Shown one piece after another: positions 8,564-24,893 of a stretch of 50,072 nt of DNA (within the stretch, counting starts at the first letter, position 1; every line of letters starts with the position of its first letter). Position numbers and translations under genes: made by a program. Origin of the DNA: a virus (taxonomy: Duplodnaviria > Caudoviricetes); IMG/VR virus record IMGVR_UViG_3300030099_000111, positions 1 to 50,072 of that record. One strand, written 5' to 3'. Below the pieces are notes generated by a model. It was not told the DNA's origin. It did not search any database and was given only the letters and a program-made list of their open reading frames with translations.

Positions 8564-8653
8564 TTAAGCCTTGCAATCACATCCACACTTGCCATTACAC
8601 AGGCATTTCAAATTTATAATAGCTCTAAATAACCTTCTAAAGTACCTTTTCAT
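8564..8653 (-). CDS. 29-aa Cys-rich micro-protein (not in ORF track)
   Basis: MKRYFRRLFRAIINLKCLCNGKCGCDCKA; ATGA overlap with the upstream stop, GGAGG upstream, stop 1 nt before the next ATG. Confidence 0.65.
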   Translation of the reverse strand: MKRYFRRLFRAIINLKCLCNGKCGCDCKA

Positions 8654-8835
8654 TTGTACCCTCCACCTTTTGCTTTGTATTGCTTTGCAAGCATCTGTGC
8701 TTTCCTGGCGCTCCACTGTCCAGGTTTTCCACCTTTGCTGCCAGCTTTAATGGAAGAAAACAAACGCTTACGCATAGTAGGCTTAGTATAATTACCTGCC
8801 TTGTTAACGGTTGATTTTTTTGCTGATTTCGCCAC
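8650..8835 (-). CDS. Basic protein, GQWSARKAQ family (DUF5872-like)
   Basis: NYTKPTMRKRLF...KGGKPGQWSARKAQMLAKQYKAKGGGY. Confidence 0.75.
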   Translation of the reverse strand: MAKSAKKSTVNKAGNYTKPTMRKRLFSSIKAGSKGGKPGQWSARKAQMLAKQYKAKGGGYK

Positions 8836-8965
8836 GAGTAATACCTATATCTTTTAATTGTTCGTTGGTCATACTTGTCAACTGCCAGTGAGCCACTCTT
8901 CGCTCTTGGTGTTGTATTATCTTGTTGTTTGCTCTTTTGAGCACTTCTAATAATTTTGTCCACAT
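8804..8965 (-). CDS. DUF1127 (YjiS/CcaF1-like) small protein (not in ORF track)
   Basis: MWTKLLEVLKRANNKIIQHQERRVAHWQLTSMTNEQLKDIGITRGEISKKINR; L-xx-M-xxxx-L-x-DIGI-x-R-x-EI signature; AAGGA RBS. Confidence 0.85.
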   Translation of the reverse strand: MWTKLLEVLKRANNKIIQHQERRVAHWQLTSMTNEQLKDIGITRGEISKKINR

Positions 8966-9029
8966 AAACTATCCTTTCTTACATTAGTTGTGTACTAAGA
9001 ATAGTTTTACACATATGTGGACAAAATTA
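8951..9029 (-). promoter_or_regulatory. Hairpin sequestering the DUF1127 RBS and start codon
   Basis: Perfect 16-bp inverted repeat 8951-8966/9014-9029 plus inner 8966-8972/9001-9007. Confidence 0.75.
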
Positions 9030-9051
9030 AATAGACATTATTGCATAACCG

Positions 9052-9357
9052 TTATGTTAGAACTACACGAACCACAGTGCTTGAGCCACTAGCACGTCTG
9101 TAGTTTAAAATAGTAGCGTTACCCAAAGCTTTAGGTACAACAAAAGTATGTACCCCTGCAGGTAACTCTATATCATTATCATCAACATCAGCTTCAGCAG
9201 CACTGAAGTTAACGTCTAGAGCATGACTAGTTTCAATAATAACCATTTTGGCATTAGTGCAAACCACGTGTGTTGTGTTAGTGTTACTCAGGGTGACTGC
9301 ATCTTCTACAGACCACCCTAAGTTTTCACCAACTAAGGCTCCATTAACTTCAACCAT
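9052..9357 (-). CDS. Hypothetical beta-rich protein, possibly structural
   Basis: 101-aa ORF with AGGA RBS in the virion arm. Confidence 0.7.
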   Translation of the reverse strand: MVEVNGALVGENLGWSVEDAVTLSNTNTTHVVCTNAKMVIIETSHALDVNFSAAEADVDDNDIELPAGVHTFVVPKALGNATILNYRRASGSSTVVRVVLT

Positions 9358-9371
9358 AGTTGTATCCTAAC

Positions 9372-9881
9372 CTATGTAAATGGAGTTGCTGCAGTACCGT
9401 CACCGAATAGGTGTCCTGTAACTACCCACTTAGAATCAGTGATACATGTGTACTTAATCATACCACCGATAAAACGTCCTTTAGTATCACCGTCAGCTAC
9501 AATCTGATGATCTGCTGCTGCAGGTACTACAAACGCTAGTGTATCAATGTTTTCATTTAACGCAGCTAAACCACCGACTTCATCTTTGTCGATTATTGTA
9601 ATCATACCTTGAAGGGTATCTGCGCTAGATGCTGCATCAATTTGCATTGTTCCTGTAAATGTTGTGCCTACATGAAACTCATACGTTAATCCTGCTGCTG
9701 CTGCAGGTAGAGTTACGGTAATACCAGCAGCCCTGTTAAGAGTAAAGATAGTTCCTGACTCTGCTGCTGTTACTGTTTTAGTTGAATCAGTGATACTTGT
9801 CACTGCTGCTTTGATAGTAGTTAGAGTAATATCTTTTTCGTATACTTCGATACCCTCTTGCCTTGTTGCCGTTGCTGACAT
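9372..9881 (-). CDS. Putative head decoration/fibre protein
   Basis: TVTAAESGTIFTLNRAAGITVTLPAAAAGLTYEF beta-strand pattern seen in phage fibre/decoration domains. Confidence 0.55.
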   Translation of the reverse strand: MSATATRQEGIEVYEKDITLTTIKAAVTSITDSTKTVTAAESGTIFTLNRAAGITVTLPAAAAGLTYEFHVGTTFTGTMQIDAASSADTLQGMITIIDKDEVGGLAALNENIDTLAFVVPAAADHQIVADGDTKGRFIGGMIKYTCITDSKWVVTGHLFGDGTAATPFT

Positions 9882-10199: not shown

Positions 10200-10538
10200 C
10201 TACCCTTTCATAAGTTTATAACCTTTGGCTTTTGCTGCTGCACGAAGACTAGATAAAGTCATGCCTGTTTTACCACCATTAGCCATACCTTTTTTCTTCA
10301 TGCCCTTAACTTTACCGCCATTAGCCATGCCTTTCTTTTTCATAGACCTAACCTTACCACCGTTAGCCATGCCCTTTTTCTTCATGGATCTAACTTTACC
10401 TCCGTTAGCCATGCCTTTTTTCTTCATGGTTTTCTTTACTTTGCCACCATTAGCCATGCCTTTTTTCTTTACTTTACCACCGTTTTTGTATTTTCTCATA
10501 GCTCCACCACGAGCCATACCTTTCTTTTTCATTTTCAT
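10200..10538 (-). CDS. Lys-rich tandem-repeat protein (KKKGMANGGKV)
   Basis: Five MANGG repeats plus MARGG and YKNGG; no acidic residues; GAGGA RBS. Confidence 0.85.
   Translation of the reverse strand: MKMKKKGMARGGAMRKYKNGGKVKKKGMANGGKVKKTMKKKGMANGGKVRSMKKKGMANGGKVRSMKKKGMANGGKVKGMKKKGMANGGKTGMTLSSLRAAAKAKGYKLMKG
10269..10530 (-). repeat. Coding tandem repeat of about 33-45 nt with synonymous variation
   Basis: Repeated ttagccatgcctt units on the + strand with degenerate third positions. Confidence 0.85.
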
Positions 10539-12473: not shown

Positions 12474-12732
12474 ATTCCCTTTTTCTGTCGGGGTCTAGAA
12501 CTTCGTGTCGTTCTAAATGTCCTTCTAAGTACATAGCTCTTTCTACATGATCCAATGTGTACCACTCTCCAGTACGATTGTAGATTGCTTCTCGTACATA
12601 GAACACATCCGACTTGGGTATGTGTACTTTCCTCATAGCATACGAGTTATTAGAGGCTAATGCATTATAAAAGTCTTCTAAAACACTTTCACTTTGACAT
12701 AGTTGTACTCTTTTATTTTTCATTGTCAACAC
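12460..12732 (-). CDS. Hypothetical protein, first gene of the virion arm
   Basis: HIPKSDVFYVREAI...TLDHVERAMYLEG; start uncertain (ATG at 12723 likely). Confidence 0.7.
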   Translation of the reverse strand: MLTMKNKRVQLCQSESVLEDFYNALASNNSYAMRKVHIPKSDVFYVREAIYNRTGEWYTLDHVERAMYLEGHLERHEVLDPDRKREYADG

Positions 12733-12755
12733 ATATTTAACCTATGAGGGAAAAA

Positions 12756-12833
12756 AAGTGTTACAGATACAAATATGGTAGGGAGAGAGGAGACACATGG
12801 GAGGAGCTTTACCAAACTGTGTCTGTAACACTT
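12756..12833. repeat. 16-bp inverted repeat / stem-loop
   Basis: aagtgttacagataca 12756-12771 pairs with tgtgtctgtaacactt 12818-12833 (one G-T). Confidence 0.75.
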
Positions 12834-12835
12834 AT

Positions 12836-12991
12836 AGTTTAACTATAGTTCGTTTATTATTATAGTTATAGTGTAATAGTATCATAGTTTAACTAGTAGT
12901 GTCAATATATTTTTTTATTTAATTGGTAGTTTAACTTTAAGTTTAACTATTTTATAATCGTTTTATAGAAGTTTTAACTCTAAGTTTAACT
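12836..12991. repeat. Cluster of AGTTTAACT palindromic repeats
   Basis: Exact copies at 12836, 12886, 12928, 12940, 12983 and a variant at 12970, in a very AT-rich tract. Confidence 0.8.
12878..12905 (-). promoter_or_regulatory. Putative promoter TTGACA-N16-GATACT
   Basis: Minus strand ttgacactactagttaaactatgatact upstream of the virion arm. Confidence 0.5.
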
Positions 12992-13010
12992 AAGCTACTT
13001 CTACTTCGTA

Positions 13011-13038
13011 GTTTTACACGGATTTACACCTAAGTCAA
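13011..13038 (-). promoter_or_regulatory. Putative promoter TTGACT-N16-TAAAAC
   Basis: Minus strand ttgacttaggtgtaaatccgtgtaaaact. Confidence 0.5.
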
Positions 13039-13534
13039 CCCTAAAAGTACACCTAGTTGCATTATTATCACAGTGTGTTACCCTCTGTATACACTAAAAT
13101 AGGGCAAAACTCAAAATCTGGTGTGTTGCAGTGTACATATACATATACGGTATACCCCCTACTGGCCCTTGCAGGGTACATATCGTGAACAAAAGGTGAA
13201 CAAACCAGAAACAAAAGAACAAAAGGTAAACAAAATCTATGCAAAAATCCCAGCTCGTCAAAAACTCCGGGGTAAAGCATTGTTTTTATTGCACAAATTT
13301 ACAGATCAGTTGTCAGTATCTATAAAATATATGAAAAAAAGATCGAAAATTTCACGAGAAGCAAAAACTCTGGAATGGATGCACAAAACAGAAAAGCAAA
13401 TCACTTGAGCAAATCACCTCAAAAAATACCCAAGTTTTACACCCTACCCCATTGTGCAGCTTGTCGAATACCTACCCCAAACATAACGTAACCTATTGAA
13501 ATATATAACAAAACGCAGATAATTATTTTAGGGC

Positions 13535-13564
13535 TTTACATATTTAAAAAAGTATGAGCATACT
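13535..13564 (+). promoter_or_regulatory. Putative early promoter TTTACA-N18-CATACT
   Basis: Sigma70-like hexamers with an AT-rich upstream tract. Confidence 0.45.
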
Positions 13565-13676
13565 AGTCTCATCAAATTGCAGAGTAGCTTTAACGCCTTG
13601 ATCCTAAAGTTTGATAGTAAAAGCTCAGTAAGTGCAATCCAGTCTTACAAGAATAAATGACTAACTAAATAAATAC

Positions 13677-13705
13677 TTGACTAACTAAATTAAAAATTAC
13701 AGACT
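13677..13705 (+). promoter_or_regulatory. Putative early promoter TTGACT-N17-CAGACT
   Basis: 17-bp spacer; overlapped by the direct repeat TGACTAACTAAAT; predicted start coincides with the 5' end of the structured RNA. Confidence 0.6.
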
Positions 13706-13712
13706 AAATACA

Positions 13713-13973
13713 CAAGCTCTAGTAGATGGATGTCTACATGCTGACTAAATGAGAGGCTTAAAGAACCTCAGAGGAAGACGGATGGAAGTGACGCCGTTGT
13801 AGTAGAACCTACGTAAAACTATTCCCGAAGGTATGCAGTGCAACCCTGTGCTATAGAACGGTAAAATACATCAGTCCGTCATTAGGAAAAGCTTGATGTT
13901 TTTTGCGAGGCACACGCCAACTAATCTGAGCCAACTCAGACTTATGCTTGACATATGGGTTGGCTTGTGTCTT
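13713..13973 (+). ncRNA. Candidate structured ncRNA / early leader
   Basis: Nested helices 13713-18/13890-95, 13777-82/13875-80, 13794-98/13857-61; hairpins 13722-37 and 13753-69; second domain 13908-21/13959-73. Confidence 0.55.
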
Positions 13974-14001
13974 ACTGAAAATATTACAGAGAGGTGATAC
14001 A

Positions 14002-14139
14002 ATGCAAGTATGGACTTTAAACTTAAAAGACTATGAAACTAGCTATACTACTCAAATATTTATTGAGGCTAGTAGTTATAACAAAGCATTTGAAATATTA
14101 ACTAAATGGTATAGAGGTTGGGAGGTGATACATGACTAA
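14002..14139 (+). CDS. Small early protein
   Basis: ATG at 14002 after GAGGTG RBS; MQVWTLNLKD... Confidence 0.7.
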   Translation: MQVWTLNLKDYETSYTTQIFIEASSYNKAFEILTKWYRGWEVIHD

Positions 14140-14740
14140 GATAGTAAACGACTTCATGGCATACGTGGATAACATTGAGAATGTTTACACACAATGCACT
14201 AGTCCAGAGATAGCACACGGTATGACTTGGTATGCAGATGCTAAGTCTAGCGCCTACGAGATATGCGACAAGTATGAACTACCGTTGCACATTGTAGTCG
14301 GTGTTATTTCCGCACTAAGTCCGACTAACAAGTGGGAGATAAACCTACGCAATGCTGATGATATGTGCCGTATCTTTACAGACGGTGGCTATATAGAAGA
14401 GTGCAAGCCTAGCACGTATAACACAATGCGAGACAAGGCTTGGTCAATACTACAGAGTATGCCACACACTAGTGGAGATGTAGCATTCATACTCAGAGGT
14501 CCAAAAATCACAGACTTCTTTTGGTGTATCTTAGGTGATGACACTTGTGTAATTGATGGACACGCTTGGTGCATTGCTCACAACGATAGACGCAAGCTAC
14601 AAGAAGTACCAAACATAGGTAAAGCATTGCGACAAGACCTACAAGAAGCTTACAGAAGTGTAGGACTAAAGCACAATATGAAAGCATACGAGATGCAAGC
14701 TGCTACATGGTTAGCTTGGAAAAGAATACATAACGTATAG
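14132..14740 (+). CDS. Conserved early phage protein (possible HhH/glycosylase-like fold)
   Basis: WY, ISALSP..W..N, GPKI..F, IDGHA, QAATW motifs; GGAGGTG RBS. Confidence 0.7.
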   Translation: MTKIVNDFMAYVDNIENVYTQCTSPEIAHGMTWYADAKSSAYEICDKYELPLHIVVGVISALSPTNKWEINLRNADDMCRIFTDGGYIEECKPSTYNTMRDKAWSILQSMPHTSGDVAFILRGPKITDFFWCILGDDTCVIDGHAWCIAHNDRRKLQEVPNIGKALRQDLQEAYRSVGLKHNMKAYEMQAATWLAWKRIHNV

Positions 14741-22845: not shown

Positions 22846-24884
22846 GAAGAGTAGTAGATGTAGAGAACTCAATAACTCTACGAGATGGTAAGATATTTAA
22901 TGATCCTTACGAGCCAAGCAACACACTTACTGAGGTGGGTGTGCTGTGCTTAGACACAGGAGAAAAAAAACTATTACCGTTTGACCACAAAGAAGCCACA
23001 GATCAACATAAGAAAAACGATTGTGTTTTACAGAGAATGCTAGACAACACAACGCTACTGATAGGACATAACCTACAGTATGATCTAGCCTGGCTTTGGG
23101 CTAACGGTTTTAAATATGATGGTGACATATATGACACAATGCTTGCAGAATATTTACTTTTACGTGGACAAAAGCAACCACTAAGTTTAGAGCAGTGCGC
23201 TATCAGACGTAACTTACAATATCAAAAAGACGATACGCTCAAGGCGTACTATAAGAAAGGATACAACACAAATGAAATACCACTTGACGAACTCAGCCAT
23301 TATCTTGAGTATGACTTGCTTACTACTGGGGAGTTGTACAAAGCTACCGAAGCTGACTTTTCAACCCCAGCCTCCGCTTCCATTCGAGCAGTCAAAGACG
23401 TTACCTTTAGAACCTGCAAAGTCCTCACAAGAATGTCAATGGCAGGAATCAGGGTGGATAGACATGCCCTCGAACACGTCCGTGATAGATTCGAGCGAGA
23501 GCGAAAAGAAATACTTGATAGACTGCAAGCCACCACACGAGAGTTGATGGGTGGCACACCTATTAATCTTAACTCACCAGAGCAGATGTCGTGGGTTATA
23601 TTTAGCCGTAAGCCTAACGATAAGAAAGAATGGGTAGGCATCTTTGAATATGTAGATGACAAAGGTTTTAAGGATGCAGTAAAAAAGAATAGCAAGATGA
23701 TCTTTAAAACAAAAGCAAGCACTTGCCCTACTTGTAATGGTGGTGGTAAAGTACACAAAACAAGAAAGGATGGCACACTACATAAGATACCAAACAAATG
23801 CAAAGCCTGTGACGCTAGGGGCTTCCTACTCACAGCAACAAACGAAATGGCAGGGCTTGGGTTCTTTCCACCAAGTAAGAAGTGGGTCAGTGCCAATGGC
23901 TTCGGTGTAGGTAAAACAAACCTAGATGCACTGATAGCCACAGCTAAAAACAACAACATGGAGAAAGCAAATGAGTTCCTTCAAGACCTTAAAAGGCTTA
24001 GTGCTATTAGCAGTTATCTTAGTAGTTTTGTGGATGGTATTATCACCAACTGTAAAACAAATGACAAACTACACATCAACCTTACCCAGCATATCACCAG
24101 TACAGGTAGATTCTCTGGAAGAAACCCCAACATGCAAAACATGCCAAGAGGAGGAACCTTCCCAATAAAACGTGTGTTTATCTCAAGATGGAAGGGTGGC
24201 AAAATTATTGAGTCAGACTTTGCTCAACTTGAGTTCAGAACGGCTGCGTTCTTAGCACAGGACAAGACAGCAATGCACGAGATAGATACAGGATTTGATG
24301 TACACTCCTACACTGCAAAGGTTATCAGTGACGCAGGACAACCTACAACTAGGCAGGAAGCAAAGGCACACACCTTCGCCCCTCTCTTTGGCGCTACTGG
24401 ATATGGTAGATCAAAAGCAGAGGCTGCGTATTACAAAGAGTTTGTTGAGAAGTACAAAGGCATAGCTAGTTGGCATACCAGATTAGGCAATGAGGCTGTT
24501 AACGAGGGTAAGATAACCAACGTCAGTGGCAGACAGTACGCATTCCCTGATGTCATACGTAGAGAGAACGGCACTGTGTCGCACTTTACTATGATCAAGA
24601 ACTACCCTGTGCAAGGTTTCGCTACAGGAGATGTCGTACCAGTTGTATTGATAGAACTTGACCGTTTGTTACAGCCTATGCACTCATGTTTAGTCAACAG
24701 TGTCCACGATAGTATGGTAATTGACACACACCCTAATGAAATAGATGATGTGCTAGGTATAATTAGTTTGATTAACACTAATCTAAATGATATGATTCAA
24801 AAAGAATACAATATAAAAGTTAACGTACCTTTGTTATTAGAATCAAAAATAGGAGACAACTGGCTTGACACAAAGGACGTTTAA
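22842..24884 (+). CDS. polA: Family A DNA polymerase with DnaJ-type Zn-finger insertion
   Basis: Exo DVE/GHNLQYD, TGRFS..PNMQN, motif A DFAQLE, motif B RQEAKAHTF, NYPVQG, motif C VHDS; CPTCNGGG...CKACDARG. Confidence 0.96.
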   Translation: MRRVVDVENSITLRDGKIFNDPYEPSNTLTEVGVLCLDTGEKKLLPFDHKEATDQHKKNDCVLQRMLDNTTLLIGHNLQYDLAWLWANGFKYDGDIYDTMLAEYLLLRGQKQPLSLEQCAIRRNLQYQKDDTLKAYYKKGYNTNEIPLDELSHYLEYDLLTTGELYKATEADFSTPASASIRAVKDVTFRTCKVLTRMSMAGIRVDRHALEHVRDRFERERKEILDRLQATTRELMGGTPINLNSPEQMSWVIFSRKPNDKKEWVGIFEYVDDKGFKDAVKKNSKMIFKTKASTCPTCNGGGKVHKTRKDGTLHKIPNKCKACDARGFLLTATNEMAGLGFFPPSKKWVSANGFGVGKTNLDALIATAKNNNMEKANEFLQDLKRLSAISSYLSSFVDGIITNCKTNDKLHINLTQHITSTGRFSGRNPNMQNMPRGGTFPIKRVFISRWKGGKIIESDFAQLEFRTAAFLAQDKTAMHEIDTGFDVHSYTAKVISDAGQPTTRQEAKAHTFAPLFGATGYGRSKAEAAYYKEFVEKYKGIASWHTRLGNEAVNEGKITNVSGRQYAFPDVIRRENGTVSHFTMIKNYPVQGFATGDVVPVVLIELDRLLQPMHSCLVNSVHDSMVIDTHPNEIDDVLGIISLINTNLNDMIQKEYNIKVNVPLLLESKIGDNWLDTKDV

Positions 24885-24893
24885 TGATATAAC
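24865..24893 (+). promoter_or_regulatory. Putative promoter TTGACA-N17-TATAAC with extended TG
   Basis: ttgacacaaaggacgtttaatgatataact overlapping the end of the polymerase gene. Confidence 0.7.

Follow-up and report, generated by a model that had tools for sequence, protein, structure and literature searches.

A conserved hairpin over the start of a marine phage DUF1127 gene: a putative promoter-in-hairpin switch

INTRODUCTION

How is a gene translated when its own leader folds the ribosome-binding site (RBS) into a long hairpin? The DUF1127 gene of IMG/VR virus record IMGVR_UViG_3300030099_000111 raises this question. The record comprises 50,072 bases, has a completeness estimate of 92%, and was analysed at its full length, which is referred to here as the window. 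A first-pass annotation of the sequence had noticed that the start codon of the DUF1127 gene lies in a hairpin with a perfect 16-bp stem and a promoter-like element inside it, and had proposed that the gene is silent on read-through mRNA and is translated only from its internal promoter or after cleavage by RNase III.

Switches of this general kind are known from bacteriophage T4. There, the RBS of genes e, soc, 49, and I-TevI is sequestered in a helix on long transcripts, and a promoter located within the sequence for the 5′ strand of this helix yields transcripts that are devoid of the strand and are translated (PMC3014915, PMC2988022). Bacterial members of the DUF1127 family are described as binding RNA or acting on signalling (RNA binding, CcaF1: PMC8034643). 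In particular, Rhodobacter CcaF1 binds the CcsR ('cuckoo') small RNAs (sRNAs) (PMC8034643), and a Sinorhizobium meliloti DUF1127 gene is subject to transcription attenuation through its leader, dependent on an upstream open reading frame (uORF) (PMC12218461). A full-text literature search on DUF1127 with phage returned, in the excerpts that it covers, no paper on a phage DUF1127 gene or its leader. Here we report that the hairpin is conserved through sequence change among relatives and accompanies the DUF1127 gene, and that, with moderate confidence, it can be read as a promoter-in-hairpin switch of the T4 e/soc/I-TevI type.

RESULTS

A hairpin buries the start site of the DUF1127 gene

The 16-bp pairing proposed in the first-pass annotation is exact. 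In particular, the 5′ outer arm, UAAUUUUGUCCACAUA, is the exact reverse complement of the 3′ outer arm, UAUGUGGACAAAAUUA, with 16 of 16 positions paired, a spacer of 47 nucleotides (nt) between the arms, and the ATG together with codons 2–5 inside the 3′ arm (coordinates in Table 1). This pair ranks first among the 13 inverted repeats reported for the whole window and is the only one of at least 16 nt at 100%. The second pairing is borne out as well and is longer than first described: AACUAUUCUU pairs with AAGGAUAGUU in an inner helix of 10 bp with one G-U pair, which covers the Shine-Dalgarno (SD) sequence AAGGA. The outer stem is extended by a further 4 bp (9035–9032 with 8949–8946).

The 112-nt leader folds with a minimum free energy (MFE) of −33.3 kcal/mol, as compared to −17.4 ± 3.0 kcal/mol for shuffled sequences (z −5.25), and none of 200 dinucleotide shuffles folded as stably. 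In the MFE structure, the SD, the AUG, and codons 2–5 are all paired. As a measure of occlusion, we calculated the RBS opening energy, defined as the free energy required to make positions −13 to +6 single-stranded in a context of −110 to +30. The opening energy at the DUF1127 start is 19.5 kcal/mol, the highest of the 51 gene starts in the window; the other 50 starts, the positions of which come from a mechanical open reading frame (ORF) list and may in some cases be off, have a median of 4.6 kcal/mol and a maximum of 10.9 kcal/mol. Searches against Rfam gave no match at gathering score in the whole window, with chance-level matches only at 8600–9300, and no match in eight related loci.

The hairpin is conserved through sequence change

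We compared 61 distinct leaders, comprising the leader of the window, those of IMG/VR relatives, and those of four cultured CRP roseophages, all of them related sequences. Nearly all diverged leaders pair the SD, the AUG, and the first codons with upstream sequence, and the arms that do so differ between clades. Specifically, the window clade sets UAAUUUUGUCCACAUA against AUG UGG ACA ARA UUA, the large MFK clade sets AAACAUGGUAUAACU against AGUUAUACC AUG UUU, and the cultured roseophages CRP-235, CRP-3, CRP-738, and CRP-212 have yet other arms and keep an RBS-burying hairpin. The median opening energy over the 61 leaders is 19.5 kcal/mol, versus 6.1 kcal/mol with shuffled upstream halves; 55 of the 61 exceed all 30 of their own shuffles, and all three bases of the AUG are paired in 55 of 61. 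In a swap of 5′ halves among 15 representatives, cognate combinations had a mean opening energy of 17.7 kcal/mol and non-cognate combinations one of 9.4 kcal/mol, with window-clade arms on MFK-clade RBSs reaching only 4.6–5.7 kcal/mol.

Within the MFK clade, covariation was counted over 31 sequences, in an alignment not fitted to structure, for a hand-written helix of 18 pairs that comprises the outer and middle helices. In this helix, 83.5% of cells are paired, versus 30–46% when the helix is slid along the alignment, and both partners have changed in 4 of the 18 pairs (as in UUU AAA to UUC AAG with aaa to cuugaa). The covariation score of 0.105 was not attained by any of 500 shuffles (0.083), and slid controls stayed at or below 0.055. 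RNAalifold recovered six pairs from a mixed 51-sequence MAFFT alignment, because the two clades differ in stem geometry, and 11 pairs from the 31-sequence MFK alignment, because the inner stem is misaligned there; the hand-written helix was therefore counted in the MFK clade, and per-sequence folds and the swap test were used elsewhere. The within-clade counts are modest, the sequences being close, and we regard the between-clade evidence as the stronger. The arms differ by clade and are matched to their own RBS.

The window clade, represented by 18 distinct sequences, has a nucleotide diversity of 0.007 in the 5′ outer arm, 0.013 in the 3′ outer arm, and 0.011 in the SD strand, and of 0.10 in the loop. 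Third-codon-position diversity is 0.0 inside the arm versus 0.185 in the rest of the DUF1127 gene. The changes that do occur in the arms keep the pairing through G-U pairs (AAA to AGA opposite U; C to U opposite G in L016). These patterns indicate that strong purifying selection acts on the hairpin and that diverged relatives have rebuilt it with other sequences; it is very probably real and functional.

The leader travels with the DUF1127 gene

Searches with the DUF1127 protein and with the 101-aa protein encoded upstream yielded 109 loci in viral contigs. DUF1127 genes with 39–100% identity were detected in 90 of these loci. The gene is present in 61 of the 80 loci found via the upstream gene, and the downstream gene is still present in 14 of the 19 loci without DUF1127. 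In all 85 loci that have both genes, DUF1127 stands directly ahead of the 61-aa gene (phrog_17747). In L078, L084, and MEP402, which are without DUF1127, the flanking genes are joined directly and no such hairpin is present. The palindromic leader pattern was found at 120 loci, 113 of which have it at the head of a DUF1127 ORF; the remaining seven have no ORF of more than 17 codons behind the ATG. Among L003–L014, the same leader occurs behind different upstream genes. A scan of genome contigs for bacterial relatives gave one distant match, which was uninformative.

Since the relatives without DUF1127 are also without the hairpin, leader and gene form one accessory cassette, and the hairpin goes with the DUF1127 gene specifically. 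As to structure, the first-pass interpretation thus holds and extends beyond the window, to a hairpin under purifying selection, with rebuilt arms, and specific to DUF1127.

A promoter-like box is placed such that a start would skip the 5′ strand

The hairpin contains a −10-like box. As noted in the first-pass annotation, the box shares sequence with the promoter at 13011: the 11-mer GTGTAAAACTA is present both at 9012–9002 and at 13019–13009. A TAWAAY hexamer is present in 61 of 61 leaders (TATAAC in 38, TAAAAC in 18, and TATAAT in 5), preceded by TGn in 38 of them. In 54 leaders, a start 7 nt past the box would lie no more than 2 nt from the base that follows the 5′ strand, and in L028, CRP-235, and CRP-738 the box lies in the loop, such that a start there likewise skips the 5′ strand. 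The anti-SD strand fills the 6–7 bases between the box and the predicted start and therefore would never be transcribed from the internal promoter. In the MFK clade, TATAACT departs from the consensus in 0 of 217 cells and its pairing partner in the SD-AUG spacer in 29 of 217; the box is invariant and its partner variable, and the 5′ side is therefore under sequence constraint beyond pairing.

The same −10 sequence recurs in promoters of consensus type. The pattern TTGACW-N16–18-TAWAAC has three occurrences in the window, versus 0.15 expected, and none of 100 shuffles reaches three. All three stand at gene boundaries and point at the next gene (13038, 24865, and 1422), the 1422 site preceding the major head gene; with TAWAAT as its ending, the pattern has a single occurrence. 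Across four genomes of the group, the consensus promoter has 14 matches and a reversed control has one, and the flanks of these 14, TGGTATAAC, TGTATAAC, and GTGTAAAAC, are forms seen in the leaders. A further site, TTGACA-N16-TACAAC at 12729–12702, is conserved in relatives. We infer the internal start from its position, its conservation, and its identity with the consensus promoters of the group.

Several observations weigh against an internal promoter and against the strength of the comparison as a whole. No −35 element is present at the right spacing; the window has a TTGTCC, but at a distance of just 9 nt. In the window clade, the TG directly adjoins the hexamer, with no one-base gap between them, an arrangement also present in the 13038 promoter, which has a −35 element. 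In the window, the 9-mer GTAWAACTA is not enriched (4 occurrences versus 2.05 expected; 14 of 100 shuffles reach 4), and TGTGTAAAACTA with at most two mismatches occurs at chance frequency (11 versus 11.8). In the MFK clade, the stem includes the box and is palindromic, such that the box is present on both strands; its conservation is therefore due in part to pairing, and the box may be read in antisense in this clade. In four of the 61 leaders, the box is not in the loop and the predicted start is offset from the strand end by +3 (L030 and L031), −4 (L092), or −13 (L027); moreover, the box nearest the strand end was chosen, which favours small offsets, and the 7-nt spacing from box to start was assumed. 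Opening energies in six of the 61 leaders (L030, L031, L052, L053, L028, and L086) do not exceed those of all shuffles, and the leaders share ancestry, such that the counts are not independent events. Finally, the RNA-library data (four runs) consist of assembled contigs of relatives with ~90% identity, which cannot show transcript starts and may include DNA. One such contig, of 609 nt and from a relative, bridges 8844–9400 and fits read-through, with DNA carry-over as a possible source.

The promoter claim of the first-pass annotation is thus supported in part: the invariant box, its placement past the 5′ strand, and the −10 sequence shared with the group promoters lend it comparative support, and the −35 element at the right spacing is missing. 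A second promoter, TTGCAN-N17-TAANNT, just upstream in the MFK clade, was considered and judged probably spurious, because its TTGCA is part of the upstream terminator-like hairpin and because the window clade is without it.

The proposed switch and competing explanations

We propose that the 86-nt leader and the first DUF1127 codons act as a translational switch of the kind present in T4 e, soc, 49, and I-TevI. The hairpin lies within a long minus-strand gene train that begins at a control region near 13,000 and continues via small genes to the terminase, portal, and head genes, and a terminator scan found no terminator-like site on the minus strand between 13000 and 9050. On read-through transcripts, the 16 + 10 bp hairpin would bury the SD, the AUG, and codons 2–5, and ribosomes would be blocked. 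A host-type promoter within the hairpin, having no −35 element and a TG-flanked −10 element (TAAAAC here, TATAAC or TATAAT in relatives), would produce a short transcript that starts at the first loop nucleotide (~8996), lacks the whole 5′ strand, and is translatable. As the cassette is located just upstream of the conserved 61-aa gene and ahead of the terminase gene, the device would insulate translation of the cassette from the operon. Release by RNase III, the other route in the first-pass annotation, looks unlikely, because the AUG is in the middle of the duplex and a cut in the stem would be expected to sever the start region; the enzyme may well cleave a duplex of this kind, but would then be more apt to inactivate the gene than to free it.

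A hairpin that serves solely as a translational silencer and/or RNase III target, with no internal promoter and with the gene off until the structure is opened or cut, is a less probable account. The structure could be opened by a trans-acting RNA or protein (possibly DUF1127 itself), by a helicase, or by processing that splits the operon mRNA. The duplex is long and stable, with 16 + 10 bp here and an outer stem of up to ~25 bp in relatives such as L005, and a duplex of such length should suffice for RNase III; in the window, the two helices are parted by a 7-nt one-sided bulge, to be set beside a yardstick of ~20 bp or more of near-continuous double-stranded RNA. A box without a −35 element also suits a silencer, as do the published descriptions of DUF1127 proteins such as CcaF1 that bind structured RNAs (PMC8034643) and of a leader that controls a bacterial DUF1127 gene (PMC12218461). 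A silencer or RNase III target leaves unexplained, however, why the TAWAAY box is invariant opposite a variable partner, why the box is consensus-like even where it is unpaired in the loop (CRP-235, CRP-738, and L028), and why it is placed such that a start skips the 5′ strand. Variation of the loop in both length and sequence speaks against a conserved site for ligand or protein binding, and cleavage inside the stem meets the difficulty already described for the AUG region. A riboswitch or RNA thermometer was also considered and set aside: no Rfam family matches, the loop is variable, and the fold is very stable.

The remaining explanations place the function of the element elsewhere. A DNA-level element, either a protein operator or a folded attC-like recombination site that marks the edge of a swappable cassette, would account for a cassette present in some relatives and absent from others (61 of 80 loci hold DUF1127) and for a hairpin that spans both the promoter-like box and the start codon; it is nevertheless very unlikely, since the arms differ completely between clades and complementarity to the own RBS is kept, which argues against a sequence-specific operator, since the G-U pairs in the window clade hold the helix in RNA only, and since the RBS invariably forms the 3′ arm. 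Behind the leader stands a single gene family (113 of 120 loci), and unrelated genes, which an attC-like cassette module would head, were not found there in these 120 loci; no recombinase search was made. Translational coupling, in which ribosomes that terminate on the upstream ORF melt the 5′ arm, as in MS2 coat/replicase, is suggested by genes packed in one operon and by a start masked by upstream sequence, and is still harder to sustain. The upstream stop is 22 nt ahead of the 5′ arm and 16 nt ahead of its 4-bp extension, distances that exceed the reach of a terminating ribosome, judged by its footprint size; in the MFK clade the stop is ~45 nt ahead of the arm, and the same leader occurs behind different upstream genes (L003–L014). 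Least credible is an intrinsic terminator or 3′ stabiliser of the upstream transcript that overlaps the DUF1127 start by accident. The hairpin does stand just past an ORF end, and relatives have terminator-like hairpins in this intergenic region, but the GC hairpin of the relatives is a separate element further upstream, and the stem considered here is AT-rich, has no U-run, is followed by UUAGAAGUG, and was negative in the terminator scan. For a stabiliser there would be no need to involve the RBS, which nevertheless forms the 3′ arm in essentially every lineage.

Genome and gene setting

The nearest named relatives are the Methylophilales phages MEP401 and MEP402 (Zobellviridae) and Roseobacter CRP phages, and the phage is a Zobellviridae-like marine podovirus and no relative of T4. 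The product of the DUF1127 gene is a small Arg-rich protein; its match to PF06568 spans residues 19–47 of 53, is above the gathering score, and has 30.8 bits in the genome search. The features discussed are collected in Table 1.

Table 1. Positions of the leader elements, promoters, and genes in the window
Feature	Positions	Strand	Remarks
5′ outer arm UAAUUUUGUCCACAUA	9014–9029	minus	pairs with AUG and codons 2–5
Promoter-like −10 box TGTGTAAAACTA	9002–9013	minus	hexamer TAAAAC at 9009–9004; partly in 7-nt bulge between helices
5′ inner arm AACUAUUCUU (anti-SD strand)	8997–9006	minus	last bases ahead of predicted start
Predicted internal transcript start (inferred)	8995–8997	minus	7–8 nt past box; first loop position; GTA conserved in relatives
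Apical loop	8977–8996	minus	length and sequence vary among relatives
3′ inner arm AAGGAUAGUU	8967–8976	minus	contains SD AAGGA; from fold
3′ outer arm UAUGUGGACAAAAUUA	8951–8966	minus	contains start codon (8965–8963) and codons 2–5; from fold and inverted repeat
DUF1127 gene, 53 aa	8804–8965	minus	PF06568, E 1.5e-7, 31.5 bits vs cut-off 23.3
61-aa gene (phrog_17747)	8650–8835	minus	overlaps DUF1127 3′ end by 32 nt
Upstream ORF, 101 aa	9052–9357	minus	TAA stop 9054–9052, 22 nt ahead of 5′ arm; homologues in 80 related loci
Small palindrome CATAACGGTTATG	9040–9053	minus	at end of upstream gene; counterpart of GC-rich terminator-like hairpin GCATRRCGGGGTTGC of relatives
Reference promoter TTGACT-N16-TAAAAC	13011–13038	minus	shares GTGTAAAACTA with leader, as −10 region
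Promoter class TTGACA/T-N16–18-TA(T/A/C)AAC	1395–1422; 13011–13038; 24865–24893; 12702–12729	minus; minus; plus; minus	usually followed by T, often TG ahead
Large terminase	7664–6096	minus	
Portal	5893–3755	minus	
Major head protein	1183–95	minus	

The small palindrome CATAACGGTTATG and the hairpin GCATRRCGGGGTTGC of the relatives belong to the upstream gene and not to the DUF1127 cassette, because L106 keeps the hairpin without having DUF1127. In L040 and L041 (~1790–1850), the 101-aa gene is followed by a canonical intrinsic terminator, AACAACCC...GGGGTTGTTTTCT, and a longer form of the 61-aa gene replaces DUF1127. Just ahead of the 5′ arm, an invariant part of the leader contains a mini-ORF of two codons, AUG CAA UAA (9038–9046, minus strand), which is present across the window clade and not in other clades. 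Further upstream, a 112-aa ORF (10200–10538, minus strand) encodes about six tandem KKKGMANGGKV-like repeats; similar Lys/Gly/Met-rich repeat proteins are encoded in relatives such as L079, L070, and L082, where they occupy the variable slot that separates DUF1127 from the 101-aa gene.

Among the cultured roseophages L112–L114 (CRP-235, CRP-3, and CRP-738), CRP-235 and CRP-738 have 150–190 nt without annotated gene after DUF1127, which does not adjoin a phrog_17747-like gene in these phages; the following stretch has no Rfam match. In CRP-212 (L115; 1183–1377), the annotated DUF1127 start falls in the hairpin loop, and homology (MFKR...) together with a GGAGG box indicates that the third in-frame ATG, 18 nt downstream, is the real start. 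The sequence GTAAAACTATTC, located at 13813–13824 on the plus strand in a noncoding stretch ahead of the plus-strand operon, has 12 nt in common with the leader (9010–8999).

A candidate small RNA in the control region

A candidate sRNA of ~115 nt is encoded at 12745–12905 on the minus strand. Specifically, a promoter-like TTGACA-N18-TACTAT (12905–12876) is followed by a hairpin (12833–12756) and a U7 run. The hairpin has 16-nt arms and a 29-nt CU-rich loop that contains CUCCUCCC and CUCCUCUCUCCC, with an MFE of −26.1 and a z of −5.2. A search of viral contigs with a 14-mer motif of the candidate was too unspecific, giving 113 loci of which 10 were true relatives by blastn; the candidate sRNA is present in these 10 related loci, and in the nine that were aligned the loop is invariant and the changes in the stem are compensatory. 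The loop sequence CUCCUCCC is close to CCUCCUCCC of the CcsR RNAs bound by CcaF1 (PMC8034643). No Rfam match was found for the candidate in the region 12600–14150, and the loop motif was not found at up to three mismatches in G001, G002, G003, MEP402, or CRP-235. A complete relative genome with a DUF1127 gene lacks it at this threshold.

A functional link between the candidate sRNA and DUF1127 is a long shot, because Rfam gives no match and because the sRNA is missing from the complete DUF1127-bearing genome. It is improbable that the phage carries a riboregulatory kit, in which a CcaF1-like DUF1127 RNA-binding protein, gated by the switch, and an early sRNA with an anti-SD-like loop (CUCCUCCC...CUCCUCUCUCCC) reprogram translation or turnover of host mRNA; in such a kit, the candidate sRNA would resemble the CcsR RNAs. 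The control region between the divergent operons also contains several copies of a AGTTAAACT unit (12840–12990, minus strand), which may be binding sites for a regulator or a replication protein.

DISCUSSION

Should the proposed switch be correct, the combination of hairpin and internal promoter would not be a peculiarity of T4, but a recurrent means by which phages insulate an inserted accessory gene. The device would operate with a host-type promoter, would have persisted in a large group of marine podoviruses, cultured Roseobacter phages included, and would provide tightly timed expression of a phage DUF1127 small protein. The analysis also provides a promoter consensus for these phages, TTGACA, 16–18 nt, TAWAAC, in many cases flanked by TG. 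Both the start site and the switch are open to direct testing in cultured phage-host pairs, namely CRP-3, CRP-235, and CRP-212 on Rhodobacteraceae FZCC0040 and CRP-738 on FZCC0089.

Two bacterial systems resemble the phage locus in part. As in S. meliloti, a DUF1127 gene would be regulated through its mRNA leader with base pairing that involves the RBS; in contrast to S. meliloti, no conserved uORF and no terminator are seen in the phage leader. The CcaF1/CcsR system shares the protein family, and the window has a candidate sRNA with CUCCUCCC in its loop, but the candidate has one hairpin rather than two and is located 3.8 kb from the DUF1127 gene.

The cassette also invites comparison with the morons of lambdoid phages, which are accessory genes with their own promoter and terminator inside a late operon. 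Like a moron, the cassette is present or absent at the same junction among relatives and has a putative promoter of its own. Unlike a moron, it is not followed by its own terminator (its ORF runs 32 nt into the next gene, and the terminator scan was negative), its hairpin is predicted to block translation from transcripts of the operon in which it resides, and no lysogeny context is seen.

The closest parallel is with T4, where the system extends to I-TevII, I-TevIII, and segB, and with mobE of Aeh1, each with an inhibitory RBS hairpin and a late promoter in the 5′ strand. The geometry is the same here, with the predicted start right past the 5′ strand. The differences lie in the promoter and in the gene: T4 uses the late promoter TATAAATA, which depends on gp55, whereas the leaders studied here have a host-type TG-flanked box (TGnTATAAC, TGTAAAAC, or TGnTATAAT), and the genes regulated in T4 encode lysozyme, a capsid decoration protein, and a homing endonuclease, whereas the gene here encodes a DUF1127 small protein. 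The proposed device would work like the T4 switches without being one of them in the strict sense, given its other promoter class and the unrelated phage; the mechanism is already known from T4, and the setting is new.

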